From an uncultured Alphaproteobacteria bacterium (lineage in GTDB: Bacteria; Pseudomonadota; Alphaproteobacteria; JAJFIK01): a DNA stretch of 64,000 nucleotides. How positions within the stretch are numbered: the stretch's first letter is position 1; every line of letters starts with the position of its first letter. Under the pieces are notes generated by a model that did no database searches, was not told the origin of the DNA, and saw only the letters and a list, made by a program, of their open reading frames with translations. Below, one piece after another: positions 2,698 through 11,774 of this stretch. The position numbers and the translations under genes are program-made. The stretch is from the NCBI GenBank assembly GCA_964474635.1, contig CAYYTT010000002.1, positions 6,015 to 70,014 of the forward strand. Reading direction: 5' to 3'.

Positions 2698-4251
2698 TCA
2701 GGACGCGGCCTTGAGAAGGGATTCGCCGGTCATCTCCGGCGGTTGAGGTTGCCCCATGAGGGCCAGAAGCGTCGGCGCGATGTCCGCCAACCGACCTTCC
2801 CTCAATGAAACCTGTGTGCCAAGTGATTCGGCGTTCACGAGCACGGCAGGCACGACAAAAGTGGTGTGAGCGGTGTGGGGCCCGCCGGTTTCCGGGTCGA
2901 GCATCAGTTCGCAATTGCCGTGATCGGCCGTGACCAGCATGCGCCCGCCGGCCTCACGCACCGACTCAATGAGCCGTCCCAAACCCTCATCGACCGCCTC
3001 AACGGCCTTGATGGCGGCCTCCAGGCTGCCCGTGTGTCCAACCATGTCCGGATTGGCGTAATTGATCACCACCAGATCGAAACCCAGGGAGCGGATGGCC
3101 TTCGTCACCGCGTCGGTCACTTCCCGGGCGGACATTTCCGGCTGCAGATCATAGGTGGCGACCTTCGGGCTCGGGATCATGATCCGCTCTTCGCCCTCGA
3201 AGACCTCTTCGCGCCCGCCATTGAGGAAAAAGGTGACATGCGGATATTTTTCGGTCTCCGCGATGCGCAGCTGCGTCAGCCCGGCCTGCGCCGTCACGCC
3301 GCCGAGGGTGTTGCTGAGGCTTTCCGGTGGAAAAAGGGCGGGCATGAATTCGGCAAGGCGCGTTGAGTACTCTACCATCCCCGCCACCGACCCCAGGCGC
3401 GGCACGCGGCGGTCAAAGCCGTCGAACTCCGGGTCGAGAAGCGCGCCCAGGATCTGACGGGCCCGGTCGGCGCGGAAATTGATGAAGATCAGCGCATCCC
3501 CGTCTTTCATGCCGCCATAACCATCGACCACCGTCGGCAGAACGAATTCGTCCGTGGTGCCCGCCGCATAGGCGGCCTCGATGGCGCCGCGCCAGTCGGC
3601 GGCGCGCTCGCCCTGTCCATCGACCAGGCAGGCATAGGCCTTTTCCACCCGTTCCCAGCGTTTGTCCCGGTCCATGGCATAATACCGTCCACAGACGGTT
3701 ACGATGCGCCCCCGCGCTTCTGGCGTCAGGCTCTCTTCAAAACGGTCGATATAGCTGGCCGCGCTTTGGGGCGGGGTGTCCCGGCCATCGAGGAAGGCGT
3801 GGATTGCGACGGGGACGTCGAATTTGTGCAAGGTATTCACAAGGGCCGTAATGTGGCGCTGATGGGAGTGCACGCCCCCGGGGCTCATGAGGCCGGCCAC
3901 ATGGACCGTACCGCCGGAGGCCTTGGCCGCATCGATGACCCCGTGCAGGGTGCCGTTCTGTTCAAAGGTGCCGGTTTCGATGGCGTGATCGATGCGGGGC
4001 AGGTCCTGCATGACCACGCGCCCGGCGCCGATGTTCATATGTCCGACTTCGGAGTTTCCCATCTGTCCTTGCGGCAGGCCCACATCGAGGCCGGACGTGT
4101 GCAGGAAGGTGCGCGGGCAACTGCTCCAGATCCGGTCGAAATTCGGCGTGTTTGCGAGGGCGACGGCATTGTTGTCCTGCGCGTCGCGCCAGCCCCAGCC
4201 ATCCAGAATGCACAGGACAACGGGGCGTTTCTGCGGGATGTCAGCGGCCAT
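2698..4251 (-). CDS. gpmI: 2,3-bisphosphoglycerate-independent phosphoglycerate mutase
   Basis: The ORF is open to 4599, but the family-typical N-terminus MAADIPQKRPVVLCILDGWGW begins at ATG 4251. Also GNSEVGHMNIGAGR, PGGVHSH, NYANPDMVGHTG and TADHGN motifs. Confidence 0.92.
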   Translation of the reverse strand: MAADIPQKRPVVLCILDGWGWRDAQDNNAVALANTPNFDRIWSSCPRTFLHTSGLDVGLPQGQMGNSEVGHMNIGAGRVVMQDLPRIDHAIETGTFEQNGTLHGVIDAAKASGGTVHVAGLMSPGGVHSHQRHITALVNTLHKFDVPVAIHAFLDGRDTPPQSAASYIDRFEESLTPEARGRIVTVCGRYYAMDRDKRWERVEKAYACLVDGQGERAADWRGAIEAAYAAGTTDEFVLPTVVDGYGGMKDGDALIFINFRADRARQILGALLDPEFDGFDRRVPRLGSVAGMVEYSTRLAEFMPALFPPESLSNTLGGVTAQAGLTQLRIAETEKYPHVTFFLNGGREEVFEGEERIMIPSPKVATYDLQPEMSAREVTDAVTKAIRSLGFDLVVINYANPDMVGHTGSLEAAIKAVEAVDEGLGRLIESVREAGGRMLVTADHGNCELMLDPETGGPHTAHTTFVVPAVLVNAESLGTQVSLREGRLADIAPTLLALMGQPQPPEMTGESLLKAAS

Positions 4252-4496
4252 GGGTGAGGGCTCCTCGGCAGATCCGTCGGCGGCGCCAAGGGGCGCGCCG
4301 GAGACACGGGAAAACGCCGAAGCGCGGTGCCCCGACGCGAAAATGTTGCAATGCACAACACCATAAGCCCGTTGACGACACGTGTCCATCGGGACGCGGG
4401 CGAAGCACCTGAGGAGCGGCGGCGCGGACCAGCCCTGATCAGGATCGACTTTGCACGAAATCGGCTGTGCGCGATTGGCGTTGTGCGTGTTCGAGG

Positions 4497-4580
4497 CCAA
4501 ACGCCAAACGCCAAACGCCAAACGCCAAACGCCAAACGCCAAACGCCAAACGCCTGACGCCTGACGCCTGACGCCTGATG
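4497..4580. repeat. Heptanucleotide microsatellite: 8 x CCAAACG, 3 x CCTGACG, 1 x CCTGATG
   Basis: Counted directly in the sequence. 12 contiguous 7-bp units in the intergenic space between gpmI and the curli operon. Confidence 0.95.
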
Positions 4581-4594
4581 GAGGGGGCGGCCAT

Positions 4595-4624
4595 GGCACC
4601 TGGGCAGCTGGGCACCTGGGCAGC
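4595..4624. repeat. Perfect 15-bp tandem duplication (GGCACCTGGGCAGCT x 2)
   Basis: Read directly. It lies 15 nt after the heptamer array. Confidence 0.9.
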
Positions 4625-5009
4625 TGAAGCGGTGCACGGGGCCGGTGATCTATTTGGCGCGCCGACGCTGGCGTTTCTGTCCCGATTTGGCACCCGATGA
4701 AGGCAGCCGGCCCCTGGGTTCAGGTCCGCAACGATCCGTGGCCAGGAAGGCGAAAATGATCCCCTTTGCCTCAAAAATCCTGGCGAAAAGTCCCGTTTTC
4801 CCGCCCCGGCGGTTTGACCCTTCCTTGACACCCGAAACCGACACCAACGTGCAGTGTGGCGAGAAGTGTGTCTTTTGTGCACGTCTTCACATTCATTGTG
4901 AAATTTCATTCATTTGGATGATGTCCAATCCGGGACAGTCCGGTACATCTCTACCAGTCCTCTCAAGCGAGGGCGGCGAGAAATTCACCGAATGGAACGG
5001 GGACGACCT

Positions 5010-5933
5010 ATGAAAAAGTTGATGATGACGGCTTCGGCCGCAGTGCTGTTGATTGCCGGCGCAACGGCTGCCCAGGCAACCGACAACGAAGTGTACATTG
5101 CGCAAACTGGCACGGGTAATAACACGGCCAATGTTTCCCAGACATTCGAGGGTAACGCGGGGCAAGCCAGCAACCGAGTTAGTGGTGAGTTTAACAAAGA
5201 CACCAAAGCGGTCCAGAACGGTGCGTGGAATAACGCCGATATTGTGCAGAACGGTCGCGATAACGTCTTGGCGTTTGGCCAGGACGGGGCAGGCACTTCA
5301 GAAACCTTCAATGATATCGACGCCACCTTTAATGGTGCCGGAAACAAATTTGAAATTTTCCAAAGTGGCGGCGTTGCGAACACAGCGTTTGTTGATGTTG
5401 ACGGCAGCTCAAACGGCGGAAATGCAAACAGAAATGTTCTGACGCAGACCGGCGGAGACAACGATATCAATCTTGATATTGGTGGTTCTGTGAACGGAAT
5501 TGATGTCACGCAGACTGGAAACTTCAACGACGCGGATGTGGATGTTGTGGGTAGCACGAACAGCTTCACTGTTACGCAGTTGCAAGACTCCAATAGCGCG
5601 GTGGTTGACATTACCGGAAGCGAAAATGGTATCGATTTCGGTGGCGAGCCTCGCAGCGGTAACAATGCTGATAGCAATTTCTCCGGCGCTGCGGCGTCTG
5701 TTGGTGTTGACGAAGCTGTTGTGCTCCAGGACGGTTTTGATAACGTCGCAAACTATCAAGTTACCGGCGATCAAAACCTGTTTGGTTTCAAGCAGAGCGG
5801 AAATCTGAATACCATCACTGGCGTGACGACTGGTAACAACAACGAAGTTGCTGTCCTTCAGTCGAGCAATGGAAATACGGCTGATTTCAGCCAGAGCGGA
5901 AATGGTAACAACATGGCGGTCGTCCAAAACTAA
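5010..5933 (+). CDS. csgA: Major curlin subunit-like protein (CsgA-like) with many imperfect curlin repeats
   Basis: Start at ATG 5010 (MKKLMMTASAAVLLIAGATAAQA signal peptide, GGAACGGGGA upstream). The rest is built from Q-x-G-x-x-N-x-A-x-x-x-Q type units (IAQTGTGNNTANVSQ, AVQNGAWNNADIVQNG, VTQTGNFNDADVDV, VLQDGFDNVANYQVTG, FKQSGNLNTITG, VLQSSNGNTADFSQSGNGNNMAVVQN). Confidence 0.8.
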   Translation: MKKLMMTASAAVLLIAGATAAQATDNEVYIAQTGTGNNTANVSQTFEGNAGQASNRVSGEFNKDTKAVQNGAWNNADIVQNGRDNVLAFGQDGAGTSETFNDIDATFNGAGNKFEIFQSGGVANTAFVDVDGSSNGGNANRNVLTQTGGDNDINLDIGGSVNGIDVTQTGNFNDADVDVVGSTNSFTVTQLQDSNSAVVDITGSENGIDFGGEPRSGNNADSNFSGAAASVGVDEAVVLQDGFDNVANYQVTGDQNLFGFKQSGNLNTITGVTTGNNNEVAVLQSSNGNTADFSQSGNGNNMAVVQN

Positions 5934-5963
5934 GGGGACATAACGCCATTACATCATAGGTAT

Positions 5964-5992
5964 TTGGGGGTGATTTTGTATATCACCCCCAA
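5964..5992 (+). terminator. Stem-loop between csgA-like and csgB-like genes
   Basis: Perfect 11-bp inverted repeat TTGGGGGTGAT / ATCACCCCCAA with the 7-nt loop TTTGTAT, 31 nt after the csgA-like stop. The T-tract after it is weak. Confidence 0.45.
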
Positions 5993-6071
5993 GTCTTGCG
6001 TGACAGGATAATTCATTTGTGAATATAGTGCCGCCATTTCCATATGCTGAGCTTGGCAAAAGGAGGGTTAA

Positions 6072-6623
6072 ATGACCATTTTTGCGCGTATGTGTCTCCT
6101 GCTGCTGTGCCTTTTTCCTGCGCTGAGTACGGCTCAGGACAGTGGGCCGCCCAGTGACTGTGTGGCGCGTACGGATGGGTCCCGCGGACAATGCGGCGGT
6201 GTCGCCCGTGTGGTGGAGCGCCGCTCCCAGTCCTTTGAAGACGCGATGCTCGACACCTTCAGCACGGAACCGCAAAGCGCGCCCCTCGACTTGCTTCCGG
6301 CCTATTCCGCAACGGGCAACCAGTCGGCCGTAGTTCAGAATGGTCAGAACAATGACGCCTTCGTCTTCATGGAGGGGCAGGGTAATCGCGCCTTCGTGCA
6401 ACAAGTGGGCGATGGCAACCAGTCATCCGTCGACATGCGGGGCACTGACCTGGGCGTGGCGGTTGTGCAACAAGGTGATCAAAATCTTTCGGATATAGGC
6501 GTGTCCGGGCGCAATCTCCTTGTGGAGCATTCCCAGATCGGAAATAGTCTCAGTTACAGTATGGATGTGGAAGGTTCGAATAAAACGATCCGTGTGAACC
6601 AGACGGGGCAAGTTTCCCCATGA
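6072..6623 (+). CDS. csgB: Minor curlin / nucleator-like protein (CsgB-like)
   Basis: Signal peptide MTIFARMCLLLLCLFPALSTAQ. Curlin-type repeats NQSAVVQNGQNNDAFVFMEGQGNRAFVQQVGDGNQSSVDM and VAVVQQGDQNLSDIG. The A versus B assignment is by size and position only. Confidence 0.6.
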   Translation: MTIFARMCLLLLCLFPALSTAQDSGPPSDCVARTDGSRGQCGGVARVVERRSQSFEDAMLDTFSTEPQSAPLDLLPAYSATGNQSAVVQNGQNNDAFVFMEGQGNRAFVQQVGDGNQSSVDMRGTDLGVAVVQQGDQNLSDIGVSGRNLLVEHSQIGNSLSYSMDVEGSNKTIRVNQTGQVSP

Positions 6624-6660
6624 GAGAATGGGTTCGCAGGGTGAGGTAAGGGGTTGCGTT

Positions 6661-7101
6661 ATGGGTTCGGATTTTAAGGTTTACAATTGCTTGTGGTGCC
6701 TCTTCGCACTCCTTGGCGCAGTTTGTTTGTCAGGCGCCGCCCACGCCGGTGAATTGGTGTATCGACCGATTAGTCCGTCTTTCGGTGGAAACCCTTTTAT
6801 TTCGAGCAATCAACTTGCCGTCGCCAATATTGAAAATCGCTTTGTCGAGGAGCCGCAATCTTTTCAAAGCGACCCTCTCGACGATTTCACAGATTCAATC
6901 CAACGCCGGATTTTGTCGGAACTGTCACGAGATATCACTGACGCCATATTTGGCGACAACGCGGAAGAAAGTGGTGTGTTCGAAATCGAAGGCACAATCA
7001 TTTCCTTCGAGACAGTGGGCGATGAAATCAACATTGCAATCACCGACGATACCGGTGCCTCAACCAGCATCACCGTTCCGAGCATCCAGTCGACTTTCTG
7101 A
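6661..7101 (+). CDS. csgF: Curli assembly component CsgF
   Basis: Signal peptide, then GELVYRPISPSFGGNPFISSNQLAVANIENRF. This parallels the E. coli CsgF N-terminus (NPNFGGNP, LLNSAQAQN). An alternative start is at 6628. Confidence 0.75.
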   Translation: MGSDFKVYNCLWCLFALLGAVCLSGAAHAGELVYRPISPSFGGNPFISSNQLAVANIENRFVEEPQSFQSDPLDDFTDSIQRRILSELSRDITDAIFGDNAEESGVFEIEGTIISFETVGDEINIAITDDTGASTSITVPSIQSTF

Positions 7102-7193
7102 GGCAATCCGTCGGGGTGCGAATCCGGTCTGAGCATGTGATCCGCAGGCGCCATGATGATGGCGGGCGCAGCGCGGAACCATCCGAGAGTTAG

Positions 7194-8243
7194 GTGAGTT
7201 TCAGTGTGATGGTCAGGAAGCGAACCGTTGTCCTGCCTTTGGTGCGGACAGTCTGTGCTTTGCTGACCCTTGGCATGGTGTCGGCGTGCTCCCTCAATGG
7301 GACGCCCCCGACGGGCACCCCGCCGAAAGTCGCTCGGACCCTGCCCGTCACAAAGCAACTCATGCTGTTGCCGCCGCCGGAACGCGTGGTCGATGTGGGC
7401 GTGTACAGTTTCCCGGATCTCACGGGACAGAATAAGCCCGGCGAGAATTTCGCGAATTTCTCCAAGGCCGTCACGCAAGGCGCCTCGGCCTATTTGACCG
7501 AGGCCCTGCTGCGCGCGGGGCAAGGCAGCTGGTTCTCCGTGACCGAGCGCAGTGGCCTGAACAATCTGCTCCAGGAGCGGCGGATTATTCGAGGGACCCG
7601 CGAGGAATATGAGGGCAAGGGCAATGGCCTCCTGCCGCCCCTGCGCTTTGCCGGGATCATGCTTGAGGGCGGGGTCATTGCCTATGACTCCAATGTCCGA
7701 ACCGGCGGGATCGGGGCGCGCTGGCTCGGCATCGGGTCCGATATTCAGTATCGCCGCGATATTGTGACCGTGGCCTTGCGGGCGGTGAGTGTCAGCACGG
7801 GGAAGGTCCTTGCAGCCGTCAGCACGACGAAGACGGTGTATTCCATTGCGGCGCGGACGAATGTGTTCCGCTTCATTGCCGTCGATGAGATATTGGATGC
7901 GGATGCCGGCTTTTCGATCAATGAACCGCCCCAGCTCGCCGTGCGCCAGGCCGTTGAATTGGCGGTCTATTCCCTTGTTCTCGAAGGGGCCCTGAACGGT
8001 CTATGGTCCTTTGAAGACAAGAGGCAGGCACGCGGCATCCTGAAACGCTTCATTGAGACGCGCTATGATGGGTTCGGCCCGGGAGATCTGCTTGGCATCA
8101 ATGAAAAATTCGAACGGGCCACAAATCCGAATTTCGGCATGGCCACGGTGGAGATGCAAGGTGTTGAGGTCGTTCTGTCCTCACCCAATGGGGAGGCGTC
8201 CGCAGCAACGGTCCGAGACAACCGGCTCCCGAAATTGTTCTGA
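7194..8243 (+). CDS. csgG: Curli secretion channel lipoprotein CsgG
   Basis: Lipobox LTLGMVSAC. CsgG-family core VGVYSFPDLTGQNKP, KAVTQGASAYLTEALLRAGQGSWFSVTERSGLNNLLQERRI. GTG start at 7194, alternative ATG at 7209. Confidence 0.85.
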   Translation: MSFSVMVRKRTVVLPLVRTVCALLTLGMVSACSLNGTPPTGTPPKVARTLPVTKQLMLLPPPERVVDVGVYSFPDLTGQNKPGENFANFSKAVTQGASAYLTEALLRAGQGSWFSVTERSGLNNLLQERRIIRGTREEYEGKGNGLLPPLRFAGIMLEGGVIAYDSNVRTGGIGARWLGIGSDIQYRRDIVTVALRAVSVSTGKVLAAVSTTKTVYSIAARTNVFRFIAVDEILDADAGFSINEPPQLAVRQAVELAVYSLVLEGALNGLWSFEDKRQARGILKRFIETRYDGFGPGDLLGINEKFERATNPNFGMATVEMQGVEVVLSSPNGEASAATVRDNRLPKLF

Positions 8244-8307
8244 GCGGTCATGCCTGTCTCCTCGGTTGCTCGCGCCTGCTGCGCGGACAGCGGTTTGTTT
8301 CTTTTTG

Positions 8308-9003
8308 ATGGGCGGCGTTGGTACGGCGCAGGATCTTGTTGAAGGGCAGGATCTTGTTGACACGGACGATCTGGTGGCGACGGACGACCAAATTTCGGAT
8401 CCGGATGAATTTGGCAGCGATCCGCCTTTCTCGATCGGCGGATTGCATTTGGGGATGACCCTTGAGGAGATCGCGAGGGTCCACCCGTCCCTCTCGACAC
8501 AGAACGCCCCTTTCTCGGATGCCATCGACCGGTCAGTGCCTTTGCAAGCGGATGTGGAATCCAGTGTGGCGCGCTTTGGCTACCGGAATGTGACCTTGAA
8601 CGACGATGGGGCGGGCGCTGACCAGTCGGGGTTGACGGCGCAGTCCCTCTACCTGCCGACCGGCCTTGAAATCGCGGAGTTGACAGGGACCCTTCGCGCC
8701 ACGGGGGAGGGGGTTGTCTTCTCGATCACCTTGGAGATGGCCAGCATGATGCTCGACTGCACGGCGGTGGCTCAGGCCATGGTCCGTGACATGGGTGAGC
8801 CCACGGGACAACGCGCCGACACCGTTTTCACGTGGCGCTCCTTTACGGTCACGCGCCGTGAGACCCTCGATATGCGGTGCCAATCCGGGCAAACCCTCCT
8901 CTTGGAGCTGAGCGACCCGGGCATTTTCGAACGATTCTTACAGGGCATCGAAACAATGCGGGACGAGGCGCTTCAACGCCGTATTCCGACGCCGCGCTAT
9001 TGA
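8308..9003 (+). CDS. Hypothetical exported protein with an acidic 6-aa repeat N-terminus, directly downstream of csgG
   Basis: Frame is open from 8053 but overlaps csgG until 8243. Plausible starts are TTG 8266 (gives a signal-like LAPAARTAVCFFLMGGVGTAQ) or ATG 8308. I recognise no family. Confidence 0.5.
   Translation: MGGVGTAQDLVEGQDLVDTDDLVATDDQISDPDEFGSDPPFSIGGLHLGMTLEEIARVHPSLSTQNAPFSDAIDRSVPLQADVESSVARFGYRNVTLNDDGAGADQSGLTAQSLYLPTGLEIAELTGTLRATGEGVVFSITLEMASMMLDCTAVAQAMVRDMGEPTGQRADTVFTWRSFTVTRRETLDMRCQSGQTLLLELSDPGIFERFLQGIETMRDEALQRRIPTPRY
8329..8389 (+). repeat. 18-bp in-frame tandem repeat (about 3.4 units) encoding QDLVEG/QDLVDT/DDLVAT/DD
   Basis: CAGGATCTTGTTGAAGGG, CAGGATCTTGTTGACACG, GACGATCTGGTGGCGACG, then a partial GACGACC. 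Read directly. Confidence 0.8.
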
Positions 9004-9130
9004 AGCGGTTTGCGTTCAAAGCCCGTGCGGCGCACCGATGCCCTGGGGCATGAGAGAGAACAACAACAAGGCAATGCGGGCATTCAGATCGCCGCTTTGC
9101 CACTTGGCCAAAAGTGGTGATACCGTGAGT

Positions 9131-10114
9131 ATGCTGAAGAGTTTGATGGGGGGCAACAGATCGCGTCTTTTCTCAGTTCTCTTCGCGATTCTGCCGATTG
9201 CTCCGATTGCGGCAAGTCTGTCCGTGACGCCCGCTCCGGATGCCTCCAGTGACCAGGGCACGGGCCCGGCTCCCCAGGCGGCGCCGGCCCGCGCGCCGGG
9301 CTTTCAGGAATGCGGCGATTGCCCCCGGATGGTGGTTGTTCCGCCGGGCACCATGACCATTGGCAAATCCGGCAATCAGGGCGAGCCGGACGAACGTCCT
9401 AGCCGGGTCGTGGCCTTCTCCGCGCCCTTTGCGGTCAGCGAAACGGAGGTCACCGTTGAACAATTCGCCGCCTTCGTGAACGACACCGGATATGAGATGG
9501 GCTTGGGCTGTTGGACCTACGAAAACGATGTCTTCGCCGAACGTGTCGATCGCTCCTGGATCAATCCGGGTTATGCAAGAACCGGGGCAAGCCCGGTGAC
9601 TTGCGTGTCGTGGATCGATGCCATGACATATGCCAAATGGCTCAGTGCAAAGACCAAAGCGACCTATCGTCTTCTTTCCGAGAGCGAATGGGAATACGCG
9701 GCACGGGGCGGGCGCACGACGCCTTTCAGTTGGGGCAGCGAGCCGTCCTCATGCCGGCGCGGGGCCGTTGACGGGGCCTCGAACCGTCTGTGCGGTGGGC
9801 AGGGGCCACTCCCGGTCGGGACATTTCAACGCAATCGGTTCGGACTTTTCGACGTGCATGGCAATGTTTGGGAATGGGTTCTCGATTGCTGGAATGGGTC
9901 CTACGCAACTTTGGCCGCCAACGGTGCACCTAATGGCAATGGCGACTGTCAGCGGGCCGTTTTGCGCGGCGGCTCGTGGCTCACTTATCCCGCCGCTCAA
10001 CGCTTAGGGCTGCGCAATTGGTTGAGCCGTACGGAGCGTCAAAGCCATGTGGGATTTCGGATCCTTCGCCCCTTCTCCGCACAGGAACTAAACGCCAATC
10101 GCATCGGGTTATGA
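9131..10114 (+). CDS. Exported formylglycine-generating-enzyme family (SUMF1/EgtB/PvdO-like) domain protein
   Basis: Start at ATG 9131 gives the signal-like MLKSLMGGNRSRLFSVLFAILPIAPIAASL. FGE-sulfatase domain blocks: MVVVPPGTMTIG, ERPSRVVAFSAPFAVSETEVTVEQFAAFV, PVTCVSWIDAMTYAKWLS, YRLLSESEWEYAARGG, FGLFDVHGNVWEW, LRGGSW, GFRILR. Confidence 0.8.
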   Translation: MLKSLMGGNRSRLFSVLFAILPIAPIAASLSVTPAPDASSDQGTGPAPQAAPARAPGFQECGDCPRMVVVPPGTMTIGKSGNQGEPDERPSRVVAFSAPFAVSETEVTVEQFAAFVNDTGYEMGLGCWTYENDVFAERVDRSWINPGYARTGASPVTCVSWIDAMTYAKWLSAKTKATYRLLSESEWEYAARGGRTTPFSWGSEPSSCRRGAVDGASNRLCGGQGPLPVGTFQRNRFGLFDVHGNVWEWVLDCWNGSYATLAANGAPNGNGDCQRAVLRGGSWLTYPAAQRLGLRNWLSRTERQSHVGFRILRPFSAQELNANRIGL

Positions 10115-10179
10115 AGGGGGCAAGGGAGTTTGATAGGGGAAGTCTGGTAGGGGGAGTTTGATAAGGCGACGTGGGCCCG

Positions 10180-10890
10180 TCACACCCTGAGTGATTGGAG
10201 CAAAAACGTCGCCAATTCGCTTTGCCGCGATGTCCCGGTTTTGGCAAACAAGGAACGCAATTGCGTACGGATTGTGGTCGCGGCGACATTCCGATGTTGA
10301 GCGATCTCAGCGACGCTGGACCCCTTCAGCAAGAGACGACCAAGTTCCAGTTCACTGGATGTAAAAGAAAAAAGTGTTTTCCAATGATTACAGTATGAGA
10401 TATCAATTTTATTCATTCTGCAGATGGAAATTTGCAATCCTCCGATGTCACCGTCTTTTATCACAAAGCAAAAGGATGCAAGTGCGTTTAGTCCTTTGTC
10501 CCGTATAGAAATATAATGGGGTGCGGGGAATTTCTTTAATTCCTTTGGTCCTTGAATAATATCTCGAATTTTGGACTCAAAAGATGGAATTTGAAAATCA
10601 ATGACTCCAGACGGCGTGCTGGACCAAATTTTTTTATTTAAGCTATCACTCAATGCTTGCCTATTCGCCATCAGAATTTTTCTGTCTCTTCTGATCCAAA
10701 TCCGGGAAATGGATTGATGATCTTCAATTACAGGAAAAGACCAGGTCTGATCAGAATTGACCAGCATATCGCCGGCAGAGTCGCTTATATCAAGAGAGTA
10801 GCATTCATGATTGGATGAAAATGCAGGAGATCCTTTCTTGCTCTTCAAAGGTTGTTTTTTGCGAGAGTATTTTTCCCCCTGAACGCTCAT
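10180..10890 (-). CDS. LuxR/FixJ-family HTH transcriptional regulator with an unassigned N-terminal domain, in an AT-rich gene
   Basis: C-terminal GerE/LuxR HTH (SSELELGRLLLKGSSVAEIAQHRNVAATTIRTQLRSLFAKTGTSRQSELATFLL). I prefer ATG 10890 because of the strong SD (CAAGGGGAGAAAAATG). The ORF is open to GTG 11043. Confidence 0.75.
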   Translation of the reverse strand: MSVQGEKYSRKKQPLKSKKGSPAFSSNHECYSLDISDSAGDMLVNSDQTWSFPVIEDHQSISRIWIRRDRKILMANRQALSDSLNKKIWSSTPSGVIDFQIPSFESKIRDIIQGPKELKKFPAPHYISIRDKGLNALASFCFVIKDGDIGGLQISICRMNKIDISYCNHWKTLFSFTSSELELGRLLLKGSSVAEIAQHRNVAATTIRTQLRSLFAKTGTSRQSELATFLLQSLRV

Positions 10891-11285
10891 TTTTCTCCCC
10901 TTGAACGAAGCGCCGGCAAATTTATGGCTCGATATGTAAAAAGCGATGAACACGGTTCGCATCTTTTCCGGGCGATTTTCAATATAATTGGTATATGGAT
11001 AAGGACGGTCAAGAAAAAAGTAAAACCCGCCGCGAAGTGCCACTCTTATAAGTAATACCGGCCACCTTCATTTTTCAAAAATAGTGACACTGAAGACCGG
11101 TGCCGGACGTTAGACTGTTCTGTGGTAAGAGGAAATGGCAGCGAATGGTGCTCCCGAAAACCACGTAGTCCGGCGAATTTCAGACGCTCTGCGTCTAATT
11201 CGAAGCATCGTGTATTTCAAAGCACCGGGAAAAAGTGGCGTTCGGCCGAAAAAATAAGTCTTTATACTGACTGCAGTATGGTTTC

Positions 11286-11774
11286 TCACTCCCGGTGATA
11301 CGGGTGGCCTGCTAAAATTGTTGCGGCGCGGTATATCTGCTCAAGGACCATCACGCGGGCGAGCATATGGGGCCAGGTGGCCGCTCCGAAGCTCACTGTG
11401 AGGTCGGCGTCCTCGCGCAAATCCGGGTCGAGGCCGGCGGCCCCGCCAATGAGGAGCGTCGTGGCCGGCGAGCCCTGGTCGCGCCAGGCGGCGATGCGCT
11501 CGGCGAAACCTTTGGAGGGCAGGGGGGCGCCCCGTTCATCAAGGGCAATGACTTTGCCGCCGGGCACGAGGGCCTTGCGCAGCTTGTCTGCTTCGCCGGC
11601 CTTGGCCTCGCGCGAGCCGGGTTTTGCCCCCCCGCCGTCCTCCCATTCCATCACCTCAAGGGGCTTTAGTCCGAGCGGGCGGGCGAGCGCGTCGAAGCGG
11701 GTGCGGTAATCTTCACATAGACTGCGTTCAGGCGACCGGCGCATCCGGCCGATCGCCGCCACAATAAGTTTCAC
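11286..11774 (-). CDS. rlmH: 23S rRNA (pseudouridine1915-N3)-methyltransferase RlmH (SPOUT)
   Basis: MKLIVAAIGRMRRSPE, KVIALDERG, TLLIGGAAGL, SFGAATWPHMLARVMVLEQIYRAATILAGHPYHRE. Typical size of 162 aa. Confidence 0.9.
   Translation of the reverse strand: MKLIVAAIGRMRRSPERSLCEDYRTRFDALARPLGLKPLEVMEWEDGGGAKPGSREAKAGEADKLRKALVPGGKVIALDERGAPLPSKGFAERIAAWRDQGSPATTLLIGGAAGLDPDLREDADLTVSFGAATWPHMLARVMVLEQIYRAATILAGHPYHRE

Follow-up and report, generated by a model that had tools for sequence, protein, structure and literature searches.

In Escherichia coli, the small protein CsgE delivers or holds curlin subunits at the outer-membrane channel CsgG, or gates that channel. [quoted passage not shown] Proteins with the fold of the formylglycine-generating enzyme (FGE) have been described in other envelope settings: PvdO is required in vivo for the last periplasmic oxidation of the tyrosine-derived fluorophore of pyoverdine, although the purified protein was inactive and contained no cofactor (PMC6206403), and Tsi3 is a periplasmic immunity protein of a type VI secretion system (T6SS) (bioRxiv 10.1101/2021.05.21.445229). 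Here we describe a curli island in a stretch of 64,000 nucleotides (the window) from an uncultured alphaproteobacterium (assembly GCA_964474635.1, contig CAYYTT010000002.1). The island holds seven genes, encoding two curlins, CsgF, CsgG, the product of open reading frame (ORF) 5, an FGE-like protein and a LuxR-type regulator. ORF5 is a rare, lineage-specific addition to curli loci, found in all cases directly behind csgG, and the FGE-like gene is a narrower addition still.

ORF5 (8266 to 9003, plus strand, 245 residues) contains no known domain: neither Pfam nor NCBIfam gave a match. Searched exhaustively with HMMER, 1.84 billion representative proteins yielded four true relatives, with 26-35% identity, and one spurious repeat protein. 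No further relatives came from a profile search or from sub-alignments used in two metagenome scans, and in a k-mer protein search ORF5 itself was the sole match. ORF5 founds a very small family of five lineages, all of them uncultured. In five out of five the gene immediately follows csgG on the csgG strand, either after 5-55 nt or with an overlap of 4 nt. The surroundings vary more. In one sister island (L001, in genome G004) the order is a GerE gene on the minus strand, two small ORFs, csgF, csgG, the ORF5 homolog and the FGE-like gene, and a second (L003, in G003) has the same core, the FGE-like gene included. In genome G005 (L004/L011) two curlin genes, csgF, csgG and the ORF5 homolog are followed by an unrelated, patatin-like gene (a by-eye reading of the translation). 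On a marine metagenome contig (L005/L006) the order is GerE on the minus strand, curlin, csgH, curlin, csgF, csgG and an ORF5 homolog that overlaps the csgG stop by 4 nt, with no FGE-like gene. The first ORFs of the two sister islands (L001:5469-5936 and L003:3-557) match CsgH only weakly, below the threshold (E 2e-3 and 2.8e-4).

Within the host order (12 genomes) the presence of ORF5 equals that of csgF: it occurs in G000, G003, G004 and G005, which are exactly the four genomes with CsgF, and in none of the eight without. The genomes outside those four have a distant CsgG-family paralog only. We further surveyed 80 csgG loci from named alphaproteobacterial genomes. Two of these are islands already described; in the 78 others, neither an ORF5-like nor an FGE-like gene was found within 7 kb. 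A preliminary description of the locus, made from the sequence alone, had suggested that the two genes behind csgG may form a lineage-specific accessory module of the curli system. Their co-occurrence with csgG bears this out for ORF5, every homolog of which is csgG-linked, whereas the FGE-like gene is missing from two ORF5 loci and its association is limited to one genus. Since the FGE-like gene is absent from those two loci and from the 78 others, the pair is not an obligate module.

The reading frame of ORF5 is open from 8053, and the database gene call begins at ATG 8308 (231 residues). We prefer TTG 8266 as the start, because initiation at ATG 8308 would remove the hydrophobic core of the signal peptide; TTG 8266 is the only start that yields a hydrophobic, signal-peptide-like N-terminus resembling that of the homologs. 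The resulting sequence, MLAPAARTAVCFFLMGGVGTA followed by QD, lines up with the N-termini of the homologs, which likewise resemble signal peptides (signal peptides, here and for the FGE-like protein, were judged by eye). Behind it lies an acidic linker of hexad repeats (QDLVEG QDLVDT DDLVAT DDQISD PDEFGS; 8329 to 8418, plus strand), which is predicted to be disordered and whose coding DNA at 8332-8372 repeats in tandem with a period of 18 nt, in 2.3 copies (Tandem Repeats Finder). Both the signal-like N-terminus and the acidic hexads QDLVEG, QDLVDT and DDLVAT had been pointed out before and are indeed present in the translation. The L001 ortholog carries similar repeats (QDEVEG PDEIDG TDEIDA GDEVND), while according to the family alignment they are absent from three of the five lineages. 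Invariant in the five-member alignment are C165, C205, W190-R191 and G177-x-P179. The position behind csgG, the signal peptide, the two invariant cysteines and the WR motif are thus found in all five lineages. Since all members have signal-peptide-like N-termini and share two invariant cysteines, a disulfide-bonded periplasmic protein would fit, and ORF5 is probably exported and disulfide-bonded.

ORF5 is not recognisable as one of the known periplasmic curli proteins. ORF5 and its four homologs gave no match to CsgE (PF10627) at E<=10, and in the whole genome, which is 85% complete, no match to CsgE (PF10627 at E<=1), CsgH or CsgC was found. This extends to the entire assembly the earlier remark that no CsgE-, CsgC- or CsgH-type gene follows csgG. 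The accompanying wording, that the two genes behind csgG "replace" csgE and csgC, is misleading: as a rule, the Alphaproteobacteria as a class have neither csgE nor csgC (PMC3521004), and most of their loci manage without ORF5 or an FGE-like gene. An assignment to CsgC or CsgH was rejected, as there is no match to PF10610 or PF21112 and the model of ORF5 is alpha/beta, whereas these chaperones are Ig-like beta-sandwiches.

The predicted layout of ORF5 comprises the signal peptide, the acidic disordered linker and an alpha/beta domain of ~190 residues that holds the two invariant cysteines. AlphaFold2 models the full-length protein with a predicted local distance difference test score (pLDDT) of 73.5. 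Residues 45-245 alone yield the alpha/beta domain with moderate confidence (pLDDT 79, predicted TM-score 0.76), while residues 1-51 stay below a pLDDT of 50. A Foldseek search of the PDB with both models returned nothing at E<=1e-3, and no CsgE, CsgC or CsgH structure was among the matches. The best match, the soluble domain of mycobacterial TiME (E 4e-3 to 8e-3, TM-score ~0.3), was rejected as the fold of ORF5. The ORF5 profile likewise found nothing among the PDB sequences (best E 0.77).

The FGE-like protein (9131 to 10114, plus strand, 327 residues) matches the FGE-sulfatase family (PF03781) over profile positions 2-255 of 255 (E 2.5e-59), and its N-terminus, MLKSLMGGNRSRLFSVLFAILPIAPIAA followed by SLS, reads as a signal peptide; in both respects the preliminary description was accurate. 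There is no lipobox cysteine, so the protein is not a lipoprotein. The closest solved structure is PvdO (PDB 5HHA, E 6.9e-47), whereas bona fide FGEs align only at ~E 1e-19 and the PorK structures at ~E 1e-10. With 190.3 bits against the NCBIfam PvdO model (NF051459, equivalog cut-off 500) the protein is not a PvdO equivalog, and with 95.4 bits against the GldK model (TIGR03525, cut-off 350) it is not GldK/PorK. In the HMMER alignment the copper-binding cysteine motif of FGE, GGSYMCHRSYCYRYR, faces GGSWLTYPAAQRLGL, and TYPAAQRL stands opposite CHRSYCYRY of human FGE, which contains the active-site residues C336 and C341. The orthologs similarly lack cysteine at the catalytic site (SLPKDHRV and SSPGNLRS). 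Because both catalytic cysteines are lost, the protein cannot be a formylglycine-generating enzyme, which excludes the previously suggested modification of curli subunits for the FGE-type conversion of cysteine to formylglycine. A sulfatase domain was not found among the seven island proteins, to which this Pfam scan was confined. Among close relatives in the databases, fusions to caspase, TIR, SEL1, ankyrin or peptidoglycan-binding domains are frequent, and those to the first four of these suggest that the subfamily is a binding module.

In three islands (window, L001 and L003) the FGE-like gene occupies the identical position after ORF5. The three copies are 48-54% identical, compared with 28-35% for ORF5 and 64-69% for CsgG of the same islands. 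In a tree with 135 database domains and paralogs from eight genomes of the order (the best ones in G001-G009) they form an exclusive clade with SH-aLRT (Shimodaira-Hasegawa-like approximate likelihood ratio test) support of 99-100. No ortholog exists in G001 and G002, the congeners without curli, where the best matches score 168 and 135 bits, versus 276-330 bits for the orthologs. Two sequence motifs follow the same distribution. The segment D-x-x-E-[FL]-G-S-D-P-x-F is invariant near the N-terminus of ORF5, together with the acidic repeats, only in the three FGE-bearing islands, and only there does CsgG end in PK[VL]F. The gap between ORF5 and the FGE-like gene measures 107-127 nt across the islands (127 nt in the window), and neither a conserved element nor a stable RNA structure was found in it (z -0.28; the L003 slice of the alignment is probably mis-cut). 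The number of FGE-sulfatase copies ranges from 1 to 27 per genome in the host order, with eight in this genome. The up to 27 copies of G004 include five on contig C62 and three on C71, and many of them lie in long multidomain ORFs.

The reading that we favour, with a probability of roughly 0.55, is that of a mobile curli island in which ORF5 acts as an accessory of the secretion channel and the FGE-like protein as a non-catalytic partner. ORF5 would be produced from the csgF-csgG operon and exported via Sec to the periplasm, where it most likely would serve as a lineage-specific accessory of the CsgG/CsgF channel that delivers or holds curlin subunits or gates the channel. Such a role would be CsgE-like in function, not in ancestry; a role as chaperone is the main alternative. 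The FGE-like gene would have been recruited into the island by one genus from a large local pool of paralogs, and its product may most likely be a periplasmic binding or scaffold partner of island components. A non-catalytic role is favoured because the catalytic residues are lost, because the subfamily behaves as a binding module and because PorK/GldK and Tsi3 provide precedents. Candidate ligands are the acidic "EFGSDP" segment at the N-terminus of ORF5 and the CsgG tail ending in PK[VL]F. That ORF5 is a component of the curli system we hold to be very probable, while for any curli role of the FGE-like protein the odds are about even. We regard as doubtful the most specific version of the proposal, namely that ORF5 is an unrecognised periplasmic adaptor of the type VIII secretion system (T8SS) with a fold not represented in the PDB, onto which, or onto CsgG, a genus-specific FGE subunit docks via EFGSDP or PK[VL]F. 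The main observation made previously on this locus is thus confirmed and its interpretation partly supported, strongly for ORF5 and in one genus only for the FGE-like protein. The belief that such a pairing had not been described agrees with our literature search, in which no paper was found that joins curli, csgG and formylglycine.

Several points weigh against the favoured reading. A weak terminator-like hairpin (8276-8293), followed by a T-rich run to 8307 (CTGCTGCGCGGACAGCGG TTTGTTTCTTTTTG), lies within the signal-peptide codons of ORF5; it could attenuate read-through or be due to chance, and the match counts of the terminator-like and promoter scans equal the expectation from shuffled sequences. 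The 127-nt gap in front of the FGE-like gene could hold a promoter of its own. The structural model of ORF5 was built on an alignment of five sequences only, and the absence of a fold match provides no positive information on function. Two curli loci with ORF5, those of G005 and of the marine contig L005, lack the FGE-like gene and, since the 78 other csgG loci lack it as well, this gene is dispensable for both curli and ORF5. Chance recruitment would be easy given the huge expansion of FGE domains in the host order, and the three FGE-bearing islands amount to a single evolutionary event because all stem from one genus. By the same token, the covariation of the ORF5 and CsgG motifs with the FGE-like gene is confounded by shared ancestry and is a lead only.

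The main alternative for the FGE-like gene is that it is a passenger, one of the expanded SUMF1/PvdO-like paralogs that came to lie beside ORF5 in the ancestor of the genus, has travelled with the island since and has no curli role, leaving ORF5 as the sole curli component of the two. To this alternative we assign real weight, if clearly less than even odds. It is in line with the number of copies per genome, with the existence of ORF5-curli loci that have no FGE-like gene (besides the 78 other csgG loci, none of which has one within 7 kb) and with the gap of 107-127 nt in front of the gene. Yet the place and orientation of the gene have been kept in three diverged islands in spite of a changed chromosomal site, the three copies constitute an exclusive orthologous clade, and in the window the gene lies between ORF5 and the regulator that belongs to the island. 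The genomes compared for the island sites count as one GTDB genus, yet they are deeply diverged (RlmH ~60% identical); the arrangement has therefore outlasted much sequence change and no fewer than two relocations.

A second alternative leaves ORF5 in the curli operon and places it outside the secretion machinery, as a periplasmic anti-amyloid chaperone comparable to CsgC or CsgH, or as a regulator or anchor of the fibre that merely shares the operon. The lack of a CsgH, CsgC or CsgE match in the genome would leave room for a chaperone, an electrostatic effect of the long acidic linker on curlins is conceivable, and the operon position alone cannot separate a chaperone from a channel role. We nevertheless consider this unlikely. 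The marine locus L005 has a bona fide CsgH (PF21112) beside ORF5, and because it carries both, ORF5 is not a simple substitute for CsgH. Moreover, the position of ORF5 is tied to csgG and not to the curlin genes, whereas csgH adjoins csgA/B (PMC3521004), and three of the five lineages have no acidic repeats.

It is still less probable that the FGE-like protein is an active periplasmic oxidoreductase of the PvdO type, which would modify curlin or ORF5, for instance by oxidising an aromatic side chain. PvdO is its closest characterised relative (E 6.9e-47; 190 bits with the NCBIfam model) and is itself needed for the final oxidation of the pyoverdine fluorophore in vivo (PMC6206403). However, the score is far under the cut-off of 500 bits, purified PvdO displayed neither cofactor nor activity (PMC6206403), the island encodes no PvdP-like partner, the catalytic cysteine pair of FGE is absent and the fusions to caspase, TIR, SEL1 and ankyrin domains point to a binding module. 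PvdO-type redox activity is therefore less likely than a binding or scaffold role. Finally, an independent two-gene cassette of ORF5 and the FGE-like gene, inserted at the end of the curli operon and resembling an effector/immunity pair such as Tse3-Tsi3, is very improbable: FGE-fold proteins do act as periplasmic T6SS immunity proteins (bioRxiv 10.1101/2021.05.21.445229), but ORF5, which always stands beside csgG, has no FGE-like companion in two lineages, no T6SS genes are nearby and ORF5 has no toxin-like domain.

The island itself (4600 to 11285, ~6.7 kb, no strand assigned) is inserted between gpmI (2698-4599, minus strand), its left neighbour, and rlmH (11286-11774, minus strand), its right neighbour. 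The gene string M23-gpmI-rlmH-rsfS-xdhC-ompA is unbroken in the congeners G001, G002 and G003, with a gpmI-rlmH spacing of ~200 bp, and it is this empty site that marks positions 4600-11285 of the window as an insertion. The G+C content of the block is 0.45-0.61, against 0.63-0.70 in the flanks. Elsewhere the sites differ: the G004 island is flanked by an aminotransferase gene and moaE, and that of G003 lies on a short contig with an IS240 fragment alongside. The island is a self-contained, horizontally mobile curli locus of an uncultured alphaproteobacterial lineage. CsgG, CsgF and the curlin-repeat subunits are clustered on one strand (Pfam), as is characteristic of a curli or type VIII secretion locus.

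The first gene on the plus strand encodes the large, CsgA-like curlin-repeat subunit (5010 to 5933; Pfam Curlin_rpt, E 3.2e-17). Its frame is open from TTG 4914, the likely start being ATG 5010 (MKKLMM...), and the NCBIfam models of CsgA and CsgB both match below their cut-offs. It is followed, on the same strand, by a short, CsgB-like curlin-repeat subunit with a cysteine-containing N-terminal extension (6072 to 6623; Curlin_rpt, E 8.5e-9), by csgF (6628 to 7101; Pfam CsgF, E 2.6e-32) and by csgG (7194 to 8243; Pfam CsgG, E 2.2e-53), which encodes the outer-membrane lipoprotein channel with lipobox VSAC. A second, partial CsgF-like match exists outside the curli island of G003 (G003:C3:42950-43141, E 2.9e-8, profile positions 63-127). 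The window CsgG is 69% identical to that of L001 and has a C-terminal tail of ~75 residues, the final ones being LPKLF. On the minus strand, convergent with the FGE-like gene, lies a gene for a LuxR/GerE-type regulator with 45% G+C (10180 to 11043; Pfam GerE, E 1.4e-4). Its product shares 35% identity (E 3e-33) with the GerE protein encoded upstream of the L001 curlin genes, at the opposite end of that island, and because of this homology to an island regulator the FGE-like gene falls within the island borders in the window. The 65-nt convergent spacer between the stops of the two genes contains GGGAGTTTGATA twice, at 10124-10163.

The curli loci of Methylobacterium, Bradyrhizobium, Rhizobium and Rhodopseudomonas resemble the island in that they consist of curlins, csgF and csgG without csgE, and their CsgG is 48-61% identical to the one found here. 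A long C-terminal tail of CsgG was considered as a hallmark of ORF5-bearing loci and rejected, since all alphaproteobacterial CsgGs are tailed. In all those examined (window, L012-L091) the extension beyond the Pfam core measures 40-75 residues, and it is conserved within clades (ending in VVVAKN in Methylorubrum and in DKPKSS in Rhizobium). A different gene directly follows csgG in a cluster of 19 loci, among them 11 of Methylobacterium/Methylorubrum as well as Microvirga and Alsobacter, and encodes an SLT lytic transglycosylase. It lies on the csgG strand (L013:7882-8754, L019:7926-8882, L087:7879-9105; these three were scanned and match Pfam SLT at E 1e-21 to 2e-24), and in about eight of the 19 loci its start is no more than a few bases away from the stop of csgG. 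This transglycosylase could be a separate lineage-specific curli accessory that remodels peptidoglycan.

Dueholm et al. were the first to ask, in 2012, how curli function in the CsgE-less Alphaproteobacteria, and ORF5, with its clean genomic linkage and lack of a known fold, is a concrete candidate for a CsgG partner. The impact is limited, as the family is rare (five uncultured lineages) and most alphaproteobacterial curli loci have no ORF5. With seven genes, the island is compact enough to be synthesised and tested in a laboratory host.

Like CsgE, which caps CsgG in E. coli, ORF5 appears to be a small exported periplasmic protein from an operon with csgF and csgG, and the accessory job proposed for it at the CsgG channel is of the same kind. 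In contrast to CsgE, ORF5 is about twice as long, does not match PF10627 and retrieved no CsgE structure in the fold search; furthermore, csgE precedes csgF in E. coli, whereas ORF5 follows csgG. With csgH it shares the character of a lineage-specific extra gene in csgE-less alphaproteobacterial loci. The anti-amyloid chaperones CsgH and CsgC differ from it in that ORF5 matches neither PF21112 nor PF10610, occurs beside a genuine CsgH in L005 and is tied to csgG instead of csgA/B.

The FGE-like protein has in common with PvdO the predicted export, an N-terminal CxxCP(E/R)MV motif and the missing catalytic cysteines of FGE. However, the island contains no pyoverdine genes (pvdP was not sought in the genome), its neighbouring genes being csgG, ORF5 and luxR, and, unlike PvdO, the protein falls into a clade of its own that occurs in curli islands only. 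With SUMF1/FGE it shares the fold, PF03781 and the structural GNxWEW motif, whereas both copper-binding catalytic cysteines are replaced (GGSWLTYPAAQRLGL versus GGSYMCHRSYCYRYR). PorK and GldK, of the type IX secretion system (T9SS), are lipoproteins with a much longer architecture, while the FGE-like protein lacks a lipobox and lies in neither a T9SS nor a T6SS context. Nevertheless PorK/GldK and the immunity protein Tsi3 are all non-catalytic FGE-fold proteins, in which the fold has been reused, in a structural or binding capacity, in envelope secretion machines. The FGE-like gene adds a possible further case of such reuse and, if the most specific version of the proposal held, its product would be the first FGE-fold component of a curli machine, in parallel to PorK in the T9SS.

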